This document shows positions 2,672 through 26,847 of a stretch of 31,231 nt of DNA, piece after piece. Below the pieces are notes generated by a model. The model had not been told where the DNA came from. It made no database searches and saw nothing but the letters and a program-made list of their open reading frames with translations. Source of the DNA: Acidimicrobiales bacterium. Its GTDB lineage: Bacteria; Actinomycetota; Acidimicrobiia; Acidimicrobiales; SZUA-35. The translations under genes and the position numbers were made by a program. The stretch is taken from positions 1-31,231 of the forward strand of contig JABDJU010000151.1 of assembly GCA_013003325.1 (NCBI GenBank), read 5' to 3'. Positions within the stretch are counted from its first letter, which is position 1. Each line of letters opens with the position of its first letter.

Positions 2672-3385
2672 ATGGGCAAGCGAGTTCTCGGTCTGTCGAT
2701 AGCGGTGATGCTGTGTGCCGGCGCGTGCGCCGAGCAGGAGGCGACCGCGCCAACGTTTCAGGTGACGTCGCCGACGCTGGCGTCGACCTCGACGACGCAG
2801 CCTGACCGACTCGAGTACCTCGGCCTGCCCGAGCTCAGCCAGGCCGAGAACGACATGTGCCGCTTCATCGTCAATGTCGGCCAGGACCTGGAGGCGAGCG
2901 ACGGTCAGAGCCGGAGGGCGACCGCAGCGATGGAGTCGGCGATCGAGAGCCCGACGCTCAGCGAGCCCCTGCGCGTCCGCCTCATCCGCGACACCGAAAT
3001 CGCCAACGCCCAACGATTCGCCAATGTCCTGAGCCGCTTCGCTGACGCCATCGCATTGATCGATGCGATCGAGCCCGGCCCGCTGTCCGATGAAGAAACC
3101 CTCGCCAACGATGCCCAAGACGCTGCGCTGATCACCGAAATCGGTGCCGACATCCAAGAGACCATCGACTCGAGCCGCCCGCTGAGCGCCGCCGAGCAAG
3201 CGGCCTATCTAGCGCGGACCGGAACAGAATGGATCGACCTCTTCACCGAACGAGAACTCGAGAACGTGCTTCGTACCCTCCACAATGAGACGACCGGGAT
3301 GGGCCGCGAAGCCCAAGCGCGGGACGCGATGGAACGCCTGGACGACTGGTCGTGGCGCCACTGCGCCGCAGGGCTCACCAACTAG
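2672..3385 (+). CDS. Putative lipoprotein of unknown function
   Basis: Basic N-terminus, hydrophobic stretch and lipobox-like AGAC, then a Thr/Ser/Pro-rich linker and a helical acidic body; strong GC3 bias. Confidence 0.7.
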   Translation: MGKRVLGLSIAVMLCAGACAEQEATAPTFQVTSPTLASTSTTQPDRLEYLGLPELSQAENDMCRFIVNVGQDLEASDGQSRRATAAMESAIESPTLSEPLRVRLIRDTEIANAQRFANVLSRFADAIALIDAIEPGPLSDEETLANDAQDAALITEIGADIQETIDSSRPLSAAEQAAYLARTGTEWIDLFTERELENVLRTLHNETTGMGREAQARDAMERLDDWSWRHCAAGLTN

Positions 3386-3401
3386 GCACTCCGGCCGCCC
3401 G

Positions 3402-4196
3402 CTACACGTTCTGGGCGGTGAGTCCCCCGTCGACCACAAGCACCGTGCCGTTCACGTACGACGCGCTGGGCAGGCACATCGACAAGACGGCGTGAGCAAC
3501 TTCTTCAGGACTCCCATAGCGACCGACGGGCACCCGACGTCGAGCGAACGCCTCCTTGTCAGCCTCGCTGATCGCCGCCGTCATGCCGGTTCGAATAGGC
3601 CCTGGTGCCACACAGTTGACCGTGACACCGCGCCGCCCGAGCTCAACGGCTAGCCCGCGGGTGAGCCCGATGACACCGTGCTTCGAGGCGGTGTAGGGGG
3701 TCATATACGGCGTCGCGCCGAGTCCCTCGGTTGAAGCGATGTTGACGATTCGTCCGTCGCCGTTGCGTAGGAGGTCGTCGAGGCAGGAACGGATCAAGAA
3801 CGTGTACGCCTCCAAGTTGGTGCCGATTGTCGACTCCCATGCCGCGTCGTAATCGTCGGAGTCGATCGGGGCTGGGATCGACACTCCGGCGTTGTTGACC
3901 AGAATGTCGACCGGACCGAGCTCGCTGCGAATCCCTTCGATCGCCTTGGTGATCGCTTCATGGTTGTTGACATCGGCCACCCTTCCAGCACACCGGTGAC
4001 CCGCAGAGTTGATTTCATCCGCAACCAGTTCAATACCGCCCGCGGTTCGGTCGATCAGCCCCACCTTGGCCCCCTCGTCGGCGAAGAGGTGGGCCACCGC
4101 TCGACCCATCCCGGAGGCTGCGCCGGTGACGACGACCACTCGGTCCCGAACCGAGCGAGACAGCCGACTGAGCTGAACGGATGACTGAGTTGCCAT
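3402..4196 (-). CDS. SDR family NAD(P)-dependent oxidoreductase
   Basis: TGAASGMG, NNAG, YTASK, VNCVAPG and VDGG motifs; start set at ATG 4196 (GAGGG immediately upstream). Confidence 0.93.
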   Translation of the reverse strand: MATQSSVQLSRLSRSVRDRVVVVTGAASGMGRAVAHLFADEGAKVGLIDRTAGGIELVADEINSAGHRCAGRVADVNNHEAITKAIEGIRSELGPVDILVNNAGVSIPAPIDSDDYDAAWESTIGTNLEAYTFLIRSCLDDLLRNGDGRIVNIASTEGLGATPYMTPYTASKHGVIGLTRGLAVELGRRGVTVNCVAPGPIRTGMTAAISEADKEAFARRRVPVGRYGSPEEVAHAVLSMCLPSASYVNGTVLVVDGGLTAQNV

Positions 4197-4255
4197 CCCT
4201 CGGAGGCTATGAGCTAAGTCGTGGGTTGCACTCGACGACAAGTAACGTCAATCCC

Positions 4256-5080
4256 ATGGAACCGGAGAACATACGGGATCGCATGACCCTCTATCGCGAC
4301 GGTGCGGTGGCCGACGTGCGGCTCGATCGACCCGACAAGCTGAACGCCCTCGATCCCGACATGTTCTCCGCTCTGGTCGAAACCGCTGACGCGCTCTCCA
4401 AGGACAACAGCGTGCGGGCGGTCGTGCTGAGCGGTGAGGGCGAATCGTTCTGCGCCGGACTCGACTTCATGAGCTTCATGGCGCTGGCCGAGAGTGACTC
4501 GGCACCAGACCTCACCGCCACCGCCCCCGACCGCATCACCCATTTCGCCCAGCAGGCCGTCTTCGGATGGACAGAGCTTCCCGTACCGGTCATCGCCGGC
4601 GTCCAGGGCCATGCCCTAGGAGGGGGAATTCAGCTCGCCTTGGGTGCTGATATTCGAATCGTCCATCCCGATGCCAAGATGAGCGTGCTCGAGATCCGCT
4701 GGGGCCTCATCCCGGACATGACCGGAACACAAGCACTGGTCGATCTGGTCGGCCCCGACGTGGCAAAGGAGCTCACCTTCACCGGCCGCCCGGTGTCAGG
4801 GGTCGAGGCCAAGGAGCTCGGTTTGGCGACCAGGACCAGTCTGACCCCGCACGCCGATGCGATGAAGCTCGCCCAGGAAATCGCCTCGAAGTCACCCCAC
4901 GCCATTCGGGCCGGCAAGCGGCTCCTGTCCGAGGCGGCTCGATTCGACCGCGCTACCAGTTTCGAGCGGGAGCGTGACGAAATCGCCAAGCTCATCGGGT
5001 CTCCGAATCAGGCCGAATCGGTCGCAGCGTATTTCGAGAAGCGGGCCGCATCGTTCGCCGATCCCGATCTCAGCGACTGA
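4256..5080 (+). CDS. Crotonase / enoyl-CoA hydratase-isomerase family protein
   Basis: RPDKLNAL, FCAGLDF, GHALGGG and EIRWGLIPD motifs; start at ATG 4256, 7 nt after TAACGT. Confidence 0.92.
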   Translation: MEPENIRDRMTLYRDGAVADVRLDRPDKLNALDPDMFSALVETADALSKDNSVRAVVLSGEGESFCAGLDFMSFMALAESDSAPDLTATAPDRITHFAQQAVFGWTELPVPVIAGVQGHALGGGIQLALGADIRIVHPDAKMSVLEIRWGLIPDMTGTQALVDLVGPDVAKELTFTGRPVSGVEAKELGLATRTSLTPHADAMKLAQEIASKSPHAIRAGKRLLSEAARFDRATSFERERDEIAKLIGSPNQAESVAAYFEKRAASFADPDLSD

Positions 5081-5090
5081 GGGGCGATCG

Positions 5091-5330
5091 GTGGCGAGCG
5101 AGGATTCTTCGACCGTTCGGGTCGATGGTCTCACCACGCCGCATCCCGACCGCCTCTCAACCGACCACCCCCTATTCGACGAGATCATGCGCCGCCACCG
5201 AATGGCGTGCCAAGGCGGCGACATCGGCTACATCGACCCCGGTACCGGGTTGTTCGCTATGACGGCTGAGTATCTGTCGACCCGCCCGTGCTGTGACCGA
5301 GGGTGCCGGCATTGCCCCTACGTCAGATGA
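5091..5330 (+). CDS. DUF5522-like small Cys-rich protein
   Basis: GYIDPGTG...TAEYL..RPCCDRGCRHCPY signature; GTG start at 5091 inside the tracked ORF. Confidence 0.75.
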   Translation: MASEDSSTVRVDGLTTPHPDRLSTDHPLFDEIMRRHRMACQGGDIGYIDPGTGLFAMTAEYLSTRPCCDRGCRHCPYVR

Positions 5331-5331
5331 C

Positions 5332-6090
5332 ATGAGAGCACCACGCCCCGACGACTTCCCGTTTCTCGACTTTCCGGGCGTGATCGCCTTCGCCCACCGG
5401 GGCGGCACAAGCACCGCACCCGAGAACACCGAGGCTTCCTTCGACTCCGCCGTTGAACTCGGTTATCGGTATCTCGAGACCGACGTCCACCCCACCGCCG
5501 ACGGGGTCCTGGTCGCCTTTCACGACGTGACCCTCGAACGGATCGCCGGCGACGAACGGCCGATCGCTCAGGTCGGCTGGGACGAGCTGTCAGAGATTCG
5601 TTTCGATGGGCACTCGATTCCTCGAATGGATCAGCTGTTGGCGCGGTTTCCGGGCGCCCGCTTCAACATCGATCCAAAGGTCGATGAGGCCGTTGAGCCG
5701 CTTGCCCAGTTGCTCATGGAGACCGGCTCGATCGACCGAGTGTGCATAGGGGCCTTCAGCGACGCCAGGGTGGAGCGTATGCGAGAGCTGGTCGGACCCC
5801 GGCTCTGTACTTCACCCGGACCCCGCTCGATCGTGAGCGCGGCGCTGCCGTGGCCCCTGACCCGAGATCATCCCTGTGTCAGCATTCCTAACACCCTCGG
5901 TTCGTTCCGGCTGGGTCGCCGGGTGGTGCACCGATTCCAAAGCCAGGGCTATCGAGTCCATGTATGGACGATCAACGAGCGATCGGAGATGGAGCGCATG
6001 ATCGACCTCGGGGTCGACGGGATCATGACCGATGAGTGTGGACTCCTCAAACAGGTGCTTCAGGAGCGCGACCTGTGGCTCGAGGTCTGA
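5332..6090 (+). CDS. Glycerophosphodiester phosphodiesterase
   Basis: AHRGG...PENT, ETDV..TADG.LV.FHD, NID.K, VWTIN and GIMTD motifs. Confidence 0.93.
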   Translation: MRAPRPDDFPFLDFPGVIAFAHRGGTSTAPENTEASFDSAVELGYRYLETDVHPTADGVLVAFHDVTLERIAGDERPIAQVGWDELSEIRFDGHSIPRMDQLLARFPGARFNIDPKVDEAVEPLAQLLMETGSIDRVCIGAFSDARVERMRELVGPRLCTSPGPRSIVSAALPWPLTRDHPCVSIPNTLGSFRLGRRVVHRFQSQGYRVHVWTINERSEMERMIDLGVDGIMTDECGLLKQVLQERDLWLEV

Positions 6091-24185: not shown

Positions 24186-24623
24186 CTAGGCCGGGACCCT
24201 CGGGAGGGCCGACGAGGCGAGTACCCGCTCGACGAACTCAGCCGCGCCGCCGACGATGTCGTCCCGCTTGATCGCATATCCGCCGATCACATCGCCGCCA
24301 CGACGCTCGACAACCCCTTGGAGTTTCTCGAGCACCTTGCCCGGATCGAGGGCATATGTGCAGAAGATGGCGGTCTGCTTGCCGTCGATCACCGGCAGTT
24401 TGGCAAGTTTCCACGGACGACCGGGCTTCTGTCCAAAGAAGAACAGCCCGTCGACCCACGTACCCACAATCACAAGCTCTGATTCGCTCAGCCATTGAAG
24501 GTCGACACGATCGACCGGGCACGCCATGGCTTCGACACCGGCCTCACGGAGGCCGTGTGCGATCAGATCGCCTGCGTCGCGGGTGTTGCCGGTGAGTGAC
24601 TCATAGACCACGGTTGCCTTCAT
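24186..24623 (-). CDS. Flavodoxin family protein
   Basis: MKATVVYESLTGNT FMN phosphate loop, VGTWVDG and AIFCTY; start ATG 24623. Confidence 0.85.
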   Translation of the reverse strand: MKATVVYESLTGNTRDAGDLIAHGLREAGVEAMACPVDRVDLQWLSESELVIVGTWVDGLFFFGQKPGRPWKLAKLPVIDGKQTAIFCTYALDPGKVLEKLQGVVERRGGDVIGGYAIKRDDIVGGAAEFVERVLASSALPRVPA

Positions 24624-24646
24624 TGGCGCAATAGTAGAGTCCCCCA
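24624..24646. promoter_or_regulatory. Overlapping divergent -10 hexamers for two leaderless genes
   Basis: + TAGAGT (24635-24640), 6 nt before ATG 24647; - TACTAT (24636-24631), 7 nt before ATG 24623; only 23 bp between the start codons. Confidence 0.6.
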
Positions 24647-24901
24647 ATGCAGATCGCAGAGTTTCAGGCGCTGATGGAAGACCTCTACGGACCGGCCGAT
24701 CGCGAGCGAGGTATCGCCGCAACCGTGGCGTGGCTCTGCGAGGAACTCGGCGAACTGGCCCAGGCGGTCCGCAAAGGAACTCCGGAGAGCCAGCTCCACG
24801 AACTGGGCGACGTCTTGGCCTGGACCGCATCCCTGGCCAACCAACTCGACCTCTCCCTCACCGACGCCGCCCAGCGCTACGTCACCGACCCTCCGGGCTG
24901 A
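24647..24901 (+). CDS. MazG-like nucleotide pyrophosphohydrolase
   Basis: WLCEELGELAQAVRK...HELGDVLAW..SLANQL (EExxE...ExxD). Confidence 0.88.
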   Translation: MQIAEFQALMEDLYGPADRERGIAATVAWLCEELGELAQAVRKGTPESQLHELGDVLAWTASLANQLDLSLTDAAQRYVTDPPG

Positions 24902-25006
24902 TCCCTCCGGGACCGCAGTTCGATGCCGGTTCGTCAAGCGAGGCGAAGCCGAGCGAGAAGACGAACAAGAAGGCCCGAAGGCGAGCGTGGAGGGCCCCCG
25001 GAGGGA
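24902..25006. repeat. 105-bp element with 10-bp terminal inverted repeats and internal hairpins (REP/MITE-like or structured RNA)
   Basis: TCCCTCCGGG...CCCGGAGGGA ends; internal stems TTCGTC/GACGAA, GGCCC/GGGCC, ACCG/CGGT and GGC/GCC. Confidence 0.45.
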
Positions 25007-25830
25007 GTAGTGCGGGCTTGTTGGATCGCGTAGAAGGCGACAGATGCGGCGGAGCCGACGTTAAGGCTGTCGACCGAGCCGCTCATCGGGATGCGCACAC
25101 GCATCGAGCACGCGTGGATCGTGCCGTCGCTCAGCCCGGGTCCTTCGCTTCCCAGAACCAGAGCCACTCGTTGGTCAGCACCGAACGACAGATCACCGAT
25201 GTCGGTGTCGCCTGATGGGGTCAGCGCGAGTGTGGTGAAGCCGCTGTCGTGGATCACGGCGAGGTTGTCGGGGAACGAACCGAGCCGGGCGTAGGGCAGA
25301 CGGTACGCCTCTCCCATGCTCACCCGGCCGGCCCGTCGGTAGAGGGGGTCGCTGCAGGTGTGATCCATCACGAAGGCGTCGACTCCCAGCGCAACCCCGC
25401 ACCGAAGGATCACTCCCAGGTTTGTGGGATTGTTGATCCCTTCGAGCACCAGCAGTGTGGTCGAAGTCGCCAGCACCTCGTCAACCGGGCGCAGCGGCCG
25501 GCGGTGGAAGCAGGCCAGCAACCCCCGGTGAAGGTGGTAGCCGGTGATGTGCTGAAGCACGTTGGGCGCGGCGCCATAGATGGGGGCACCGGCCGCCTCG
25601 ATCGCCGGTGGGATCGCCTTGCGGCGAGCGCCGTCGACAAGAATCGAACACAGCCCGTATCCGGCGTCGATCGCTCGTTCGACCACCAAGTCCCCTTCCG
25701 CAACGAAGACGCCGGACATGTCGCCGCCGTCGGCCTCGCGTAGCTGGCGAAGCTGATGGTCGCGGAGACCTTGAAAGACACTGATTCTTGGATCGGCAGG
25801 ATCGTCGATCGGGATCCAGGAATCGAACAA
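24934..25830 (-). CDS. TrmH/SpoU family RNA methyltransferase
   Basis: LEGINNPTNLGVILR, RVSMG, LVLGSEGPGLS and IPMSGSVDSLNVGSAA SPOUT motifs. Confidence 0.92.
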   Translation of the reverse strand: MFDSWIPIDDPADPRISVFQGLRDHQLRQLREADGGDMSGVFVAEGDLVVERAIDAGYGLCSILVDGARRKAIPPAIEAAGAPIYGAAPNVLQHITGYHLHRGLLACFHRRPLRPVDEVLATSTTLLVLEGINNPTNLGVILRCGVALGVDAFVMDHTCSDPLYRRAGRVSMGEAYRLPYARLGSFPDNLAVIHDSGFTTLALTPSGDTDIGDLSFGADQRVALVLGSEGPGLSDGTIHACSMRVRIPMSGSVDSLNVGSAASVAFYAIQQARTTPSGGPPRSPSGLLVRLLARLRLA

Positions 25831-25833
25831 GTG

Positions 25834-26109
25834 TCAGGTTCCGTAAATCGGCACGTCGGGGCCGACGAACTCCTTGAAGAGTTTCAGGATCTCGCCGGGT
25901 TCGGCATGGCGGCCGGTCTCATCCTTGCTGTACAGCACCGTGTCGTTGACCACGACATCAAAAACCCCCGATCCACCCATCTCCAGCGTGAAGTCGTCGA
26001 TGATGTGCTGGTAATTGGTGATGAGGTCTGCGGTCGCGCTCACGGCGTGACTGGAATAGTCTCAGGGCACGCAGTACTTGAGGGAGATGCGGTAACGCTC
26101 GGCAGCCAT
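25834..26109 (-). CDS. Rdx-family (SelW/SelT/SelH-like) selenoprotein, 91 aa, Sec at codon 16
   Basis: ATG 26109 gives MAAERYRISLKYCVP-TGA-DYSSHAVSATADL...GGSGVFDVVVNDTVLYSK; CxxU motif; TAGACT-6 nt-ATG promoter pattern. Confidence 0.85.
26033..26051 (-). promoter_or_regulatory. Candidate bacterial SECIS hairpin
   Basis: GTC-A-CGC[CGTGA]GCG-C-GAC starting 11 nt after the UGA; loop begins after 17 nt, with G at loop position 2. Confidence 0.45.
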
Positions 26110-26118
26110 GCGGCCAGT

Positions 26119-26847
26119 CTAGGGGCGCTCGTCAGCACCCCGAGCGATCGGTGATGATCGGGCGGCTCGGACCAGTGCGCCGAGGGCGGCGTGAAGCTCA
26201 GCGGAGTCATCCAGACGCTGCGGGAACGGGACCCGGCCTCGGTTCCGCCGTCCCGGTTCGTCGACAACAGCCACGACGCCGTACCGATCGATGTGAACAA
26301 GCTCGGCGGAACGAGCAAGCCAGCGGCCTCCGAGCGACCTGAAGATGAGCAAGAGGTTGTCGTCGAGCCGGTCGGCGACGTCATCGATGTCGGCGGCGGT
26401 GAGATCGGCCAGCGGGTCGGGCTCGGCGCCGAAGAGATCTTCGGGCCGAAGCCAGTGTTCATCGCCGTCGTCATCGGTCCACCGCACCCGCTCAACCCGC
26501 AAGCCAAACCAGCTGTAGTCCAACGACTCGACCTGACGGGTAAGGGTTGGGTGGAGAGCAACAAACCGAGGCTGTAGCTCCAACTGTTGCAGGCCCGGTA
26601 CCGCCACCAGCTCTCCCTGCAGGAGCAGACGGTCGGCGATGCTCATCGCCGCACGGCTATCGCGACGGGCCCGTTCGGTATGGGTCGTTAGGTTCGACAA
26701 GACCGTGATCGGTTGGCCCGACCCATCGTCCACGATCGGTACCGGTGCCACGACCGGACGTCCGTCGGTGTCGACGGTGGCGAGACCGGCGGTCTTTGCG
26801 ACCGAGACAACGCTTCGCGCCTGTTCTGGCATGGTCGGGGCGAGCAC
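26119..26847 (-). CDS. HugZ-like / pyridoxamine 5'-phosphate oxidase-like split-barrel protein with a DUF2470-like C-terminal domain
   Basis: LATVDTDGRP, LSNLTTHT...DSR, PDPLA, IDRYG and RVPFP pattern; start uncertain (26847 or 26832). Confidence 0.7.
   Translation of the reverse strand: MLAPTMPEQARSVVSVAKTAGLATVDTDGRPVVAPVPIVDDGSGQPITVLSNLTTHTERARRDSRAAMSIADRLLLQGELVAVPGLQQLELQPRFVALHPTLTRQVESLDYSWFGLRVERVRWTDDDGDEHWLRPEDLFGAEPDPLADLTAADIDDVADRLDDNLLLIFRSLGGRWLARSAELVHIDRYGVVAVVDEPGRRNRGRVPFPQRLDDSAELHAALGALVRAARSSPIARGADERP

Follow-up and report, generated by a model that had tools for sequence, protein, structure and literature searches.

The window, the whole 31,231-nucleotide stretch of DNA analysed here, very probably carries a genuine SelW-like gene encoding a selenocysteine (Sec)-containing protein, at 26109-25834 on the minus strand (Table 1). 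Reading the in-frame TGA of this gene as Sec (U) gives a 91-residue product with the motif Cys13-Val-Pro-Sec16. Translated in this way the product begins exactly with MAAERYRISLKYCVPU, the addition that the original prediction had proposed from read-through of a shorter open reading frame (ORF). The frame opens three codons before the ATG and offers no other start ahead of the Cys codon, leaving the start unambiguous. The shorter ORF, of 69 residues at 25834-26043, begins at a GTG and lacks the redox motif, as had also been noted. The host is an uncultured Acidimicrobiales bacterium represented by a metagenome-assembled genome (MAG) of 374 contigs, which is 81% complete with 1.8% contamination.

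In the proposed mechanism, SelB with Sec-tRNA(Sec) would bind a hairpin 10 nt past the UGA, and Sec would be delivered at codon 16 in place of termination. The product would most likely be a thiol/selenol-disulfide oxidoreductase that cycles via a Cys-Sec selenenylsulfide. It would be translated from a leaderless mRNA that begins from a TAGACT box and runs on into a SpoU-family gene.

Table 1. Features of the SelW-like gene and its immediate neighbours, in window coordinates.
Feature	Position	Strand	Remarks
SelW-like (Rdx family) selenoprotein gene, predicted	25834..26109	-	91 codons plus TGA stop; Sec is codon 16
Start codon ATG	26107..26109	-	Sole in-frame start between the upstream stop and the Cys codon
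Cys13 codon TGC	26071..26073	-	First residue of CxxU; invariant in 37 aligned read-through products
In-frame TGA, predicted Sec codon 16	26062..26064	-	TGA in 38/38 distinct related loci
True stop TGA	25834..25836	-	No hairpin behind it; relatives have TGA, TAA or TAG there
-10-like box TAGACT	26116..26121	-	6 nt before the ATG; putative leaderless promoter
GTG inside the SECIS loop, false start of the 69-residue ORF	26041..26043	-	ORF 25834..26043
SECIS-like hairpin	26033..26051	-	7-bp stem, 5-nt loop; covariation in 37 sequences
SpoU-family RNA 2'-O-methyltransferase gene	24934..25830	-	PF00588, E 1.5e-31; TTG start
PNPOx-like/DUF2470 gene	26119..26847	-	PF01243, PF10615; ends 9 nt before the ATG

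The read-through product, with C replacing U, matches the Rdx family PF10262 with an E value of 2.2e-13 and a score of 50.6 bits, where the cut-off is 22.6. Residues 7-78 align with positions 1-72 of the 74 in the profile, hence the complete domain needs the N-terminal extension. The NCBIfam model for the SelT/SelW/SelH family, TIGR02174, is also passed (36.2 bits, cut-off 34.2). The equivalog cut-off of NF041051 SelTWH_Campy (88 bits) is missed at 60.6 bits, so the product is related to this group but falls outside it. Searched by sequence, the PDB yielded the bacterial SelW-related structures 3dex (E 8e-8) and 2fa8. When the alignment was run, U16 paired with the second Cys of the C-T-Q-C motif in both 3dex_A and 2fa8_A, bearing out the earlier placement of the UGA at the column where Rdx proteins have their second Cys or Sec.

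An AlphaFold model computed with 37 read-through homologues as input has a pLDDT of 94.5. It contains strands at residues 6-12, 37-44, 50-54 and 57-61, and helices at 19-36, 62-65 (short) and 73-82, which together give a predicted thioredoxin-like beta-alpha-beta-beta-beta-alpha fold. C13-V-P-U16 lies directly after strand 6-12 and ahead of helix 1. The best fold matches are 3dex, 2fa8, 2obk, 2p0g and 2ojl, together with mouse SelW 2npb, and every chain among the top 23 PDB matches belongs to the Rdx family. The five solved bacterial SelW-related proteins, among them SAV_2001 (3dex) and Atu0228 (2fa8), share the fold of the model with TM-scores of 0.79-0.89 (by target) and rmsd values of 1.3-2.0 A. 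In these Cys-form homologues the redox motif occupies the equivalent position, but as CxxC (C-T-Q-C) instead of CxxU. They are 15-29% identical to the product and have a slightly extended N-terminus.

Searching 40 relatives in six frames located the gene in 21 genomes besides the window's own, with exactly one in-frame TGA in 20 of the 21 matches. The TGA stands at codon 16 in all 20 loci fetched from relatives and in all 22 found by a scan of species-representative genomes, together 38 distinct loci; the related genomes are kin and these counts are not independent. The 22 scan loci come mostly from Acidimicrobiales MAGs, with three from Chloroflexota and one from Deltaproteobacteria. Across the 37 aligned read-through products, Cys13 and position 16 are invariant, and the UGA has conserved sequence on either side. 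In the eight codons that precede the TGA, variation is almost confined to third positions, where the Val codon uses all four bases, and this pattern is the signature of translated sequence ahead of the TGA. A search for a Cys-form orthologue within the clade found none, and the U/C pairing at position 16 is drawn from the more distant CxxC homologues. One relative of the same genus (G008, 55% complete, selA not found) was considered as an exception with no stop in the gene. This was rejected, as the match was a frame jump and the TGA is present there too.

The original prediction called for selA, selB, selC and selD in the genome, and a search of the genome found tRNA-Sec and all three protein genes. 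The tRNA-Sec scores 68 bits and is called SeC with anticodon TCA by ARAGORN; selA scores 379 bits, selB 280 bits and selD 373 bits, and all four, tRNA-Sec included, exceed their family cut-offs. The MAG is fragmented, so the tie between this machinery and the contig of the selenoprotein gene depends on binning. The selA and selB genes (L009, L010) lie 30 nt apart on one strand at G000:C95:11763-14623, and tRNA-Sec is on a separate contig at C347:1979-2070. Among the 41 genomes searched, selA scores above its cut-off in all 21 with a TGA-bearing SelW-like match versus 9 of the 20 others, which is consistent with dependence; the genomes are kin, and the comparison does not amount to a statistical test.

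The same genome holds other candidate selenoprotein genes. The selD gene (L018; G000:C222:5993-6910, minus strand) has an in-frame TGA at its active site, in the motif G-A-G-U-S-C-K, and selenophosphate synthetase is thus predicted to be a selenoprotein itself. A gene for an FdhA-like molybdopterin oxidoreductase (L062; G000:C258, ~3300-5400) has an in-frame TGA in the motif R-T-U-H-A-P-S-V and is probably the third. A second TGA near the very start of its open frame probably precedes the true start. With U sites in the SelW-like, SelD and FdhA-like proteins, the organism has at least three predicted selenoproteins. This Acidimicrobiales lineage thus appears to be an active selenium user, which bears on trace-element ecology.

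A hairpin at a SECIS-like distance after the UGA had been proposed, and comparative analysis shows that it is real. Its 5' arm at 26051-26045 and 3' arm at 26039-26033 enclose the loop CGUGA (26044-26040), and a 10-nt spacer separates it from the TGA. Over 37 distinct sequences 81.9% of the hairpin cells are paired, and six of the seven pairs show compensatory changes. The covariation of 0.294 compares with 0.199 for shuffled alignments, none of 500 shuffles reaching the observed value, and falls to 0.117 or less once the partners are slid by 1-3 columns. A smaller sequence set agreed. The G and U of the loop are nearly invariant. The codons of the conserved residues A-V-S-A overlap both loop and stem, hence nucleotide conservation here is partly protein-driven, but such a constraint does not account for the compensatory changes. 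The window's own copy of the stem has an internal A-C mismatch, and a single-sequence fold of the 81 nt after the TGA is no better than shuffled sequence (z = 0.45). This fold alone would dismiss the hairpin, which only the comparison of sequences reveals. The published criterion for bacterial SECIS elements is a stem-loop with a small G-containing apical loop just after the UGA (PMC1088965). The 10-nt spacer, 7-bp stem and G-containing loop CGUGA agree with this description.

It is very unlikely that the UGA is instead read as Trp or Cys, whether by near-cognate suppression or through a recoded genetic code. TGA is an ordinary stop elsewhere in the window, as had been claimed: it closes 20 of 27 long open frames and the selenoprotein gene itself. 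Relatives end the gene with TGA, TAA or TAG, so that TGA has not been reassigned in general. Also against this reading are the complete set of Sec genes, the covarying hairpin spaced from the UGA like a SECIS, and the alignment of position 16 with a redox Cys rather than with Trp. What speaks for Trp is that three of the 82 database homologue clusters have products of 92-93 residues with W at the Sec position. Public full-length homologues with C-V-P-W (P0010, P0012, P0015) come from short metagenome contigs. The W entries were presumably translated with a TGA=Trp table, which is the simplest account of such calls on short contigs.

Less likely again is that the TGA is a real stop, leaving either a functional 69-residue protein made from the GTG at 26043 or a decaying pseudogene. 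Product lengths of 63-70 residues in the other 79 of the 82 clusters would fit a genuinely short protein, and those read back begin at the loop GTG. This GTG is, however, merely part of the conserved hairpin loop, and the form that starts there is without strand 1 and the redox motif. Moreover, across 38 loci the stretch of 15 codons that precedes the TGA is conserved at the protein level, with an invariant Cys and variation at third positions. Decay finds some support in relative G008, where the gene (L070; G008:C30:3761-3998) keeps its TGA and has two frameshifts. A pseudogene was rejected as the best reading of that copy, because the adjoining SpoU gene is frameshifted as well and the frameshifts are thus likely to be assembly indels. 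As for a sequencing or assembly error in place of TGC or TGT, the window does come from a fragmented MAG, but 38 distinct loci, assembled independently and in separate studies, share the TGA, which leaves this scarcely credible.

With Sec at codon 16 as the preferred reading, the short products in databases become explicable. The false GTG start sits within the conserved SECIS loop, and nearly all database relatives are truncated alike as a result. The correct product has 91 residues and a Cys-x-x-Sec site, not 69 residues without one, making this chiefly a correction of annotation for an error that runs through the public records of the whole clade. Since the conserved GUG supplies gene callers with the false start, a family-specific rule could repair hundreds of entries. 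The gene had been described as a hidden selenoprotein. It is hidden from ORF callers, but not as biology, as SelW-like CxxU proteins have been described since 2004-2005 (PMC1088965, PMC1794560).

Bacterial SelW-like selenoproteins were described by Zhang, Fomenko and Gladyshev in 2005 (PMC1088965) and by Zhang et al. in 2006 (PMC1794560). No selenoprotein family was more abundant in the Sargasso Sea data, where they accounted for 48 genes (PMC1088965), and in organisms that use Sec their Cys forms are rare or lacking (PMC1794560). The window's gene resembles them in its length of ~90 residues, the position of CxxU right after strand 1, a UGA-encoded Sec, a SECIS with a small G-containing apical loop and the scarcity of Cys forms. 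Like this gene, they are routinely mis-annotated by gene callers. There is no essential difference between them; the Acidimicrobiales copy has V-P between Cys and Sec, appears to have a leaderless mRNA and has a SpoU methyltransferase gene as its partner. The gene adds to a known selenoprotein family and exposes a systematic annotation error, but it is not new biology, and knowledge of Sec decoding and of the Rdx family is unchanged by it.

Mouse SelW (2npb) and MIEN1 (2ljk; PMC3527542) share the thioredoxin-like Rdx fold and the CxxU/CxxC motif with the product. Mouse SelW is a weaker match, with a Foldseek E value of 1.4e-2. Eukaryotic SECIS elements lie in the 3' UTR and have a different structure, whereas the candidate SECIS of the window is in the coding region. 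We know of no bacterial counterpart of eukaryotic SelW partners such as 14-3-3. The SECIS of E. coli fdhF is a coding-region hairpin ~11 nt after the UGA, in which a G and a U of the apical loop contact SelB. The window's hairpin is likewise in the coding region at a similar distance from the UGA and has the loop G and U, but its stem is shorter (7 bp), its loop is CGUGA and it has no evident bulged U.

Transcription of the selenoprotein gene probably begins at the A of its ATG, giving a leaderless mRNA. The TAG of the TAGACT box doubles as the stop codon of the upstream gene. Among the 38 distinct loci, 31 show a TANNNT motif 6-8 nt upstream of the ATG, including one with a different upstream gene (L023). 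The seven loci without it include Shine-Dalgarno (SD)-led Chloroflexota loci, a Deltaproteobacteria locus and a Microthrix MAG; most of the seven carry an SD instead, two of the three Chloroflexota loci among them. No SD precedes the selenoprotein ATG in the window. A scan for E. coli-type promoters over 25500-26500 found nothing and no -35 element, so that the leaderless idea stands on the conserved -10 box alone. What had been termed an ideal leaderless promoter therefore holds as a TAGACT box 6 nt before the ATG with a conserved TANNNT, but without a -35 element it is not ideal. The box overlaps the upstream stop, and transcription of the selenoprotein gene may thus also occur by read-through from that PNPOx/DUF2470 gene, whose end is 9 nt from the ATG.

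At four loci (L054, L056, L039, L037), two of them from Chloroflexota and two from distant relatives, a clear SD replaces the -10 box. The gene thus seems to have switched, at the level of lineages, between initiation led by an SD and an apparently leaderless mode.

The selenoprotein gene is probably co-transcribed with the SpoU-family gene, whose TTG at 25830 follows the selenoprotein stop by 3 nt and has no strong SD. The N-terminus of the SpoU-family protein is conserved from the TTG/GTG on. In 19 of the 38 distinct loci, counting that of the window, the SpoU-family gene immediately follows the selenoprotein gene in the same orientation. The 3-nt gap to this gene agrees with what had been stated, but its earlier name, TrmH, goes too far, as only membership of the SpoU family can be demonstrated. 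The TrmH equivalog NF008295 is missed at 37.9 bits against 227, and the best model, RlmB TIGR00186, reaches 108 against 160.

The PNPOx/DUF2470 gene is upstream on the same strand in just eight of the 38 loci, again counting the window's own, and is elsewhere in others. In ten loci (L023, L026, L028, L029, L031, L035, L043 and L045-L047) it is found on the other strand, past the SpoU gene, and the selW-spoU pair has been kept together through this rearrangement.

Orthologues of the methyltransferase with 52-65% identity are present in four relatives where the SelW-like gene was not found (G011, G014, G019, G024) and in two where neither this gene nor selA was found (G016, G040). That the methyltransferase is tied functionally to Sec use was considered, but these orthologues weaken the idea and make the selW-spoU pairing look more like a case of conserved synteny than a function specific to Sec. 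It has also been considered that selenium supply gates a housekeeping RNA methyltransferase by translational coupling to the selenoprotein gene. Under such gating, failed Sec insertion would halt ribosomes at codon 16 and leave the methyltransferase under-translated; we regard this as improbable.

Further downstream, a MazG-like ORF at 24647-24901 (+) overlaps the long 5' extension of a minus-strand flavodoxin-like ORF at 24186-24830. Since its flavodoxin domain starts only at residue 74, the true start of this ORF probably lies much farther downstream. At locus L023 a MazG-like gene immediately precedes the selenoprotein gene in the same orientation.
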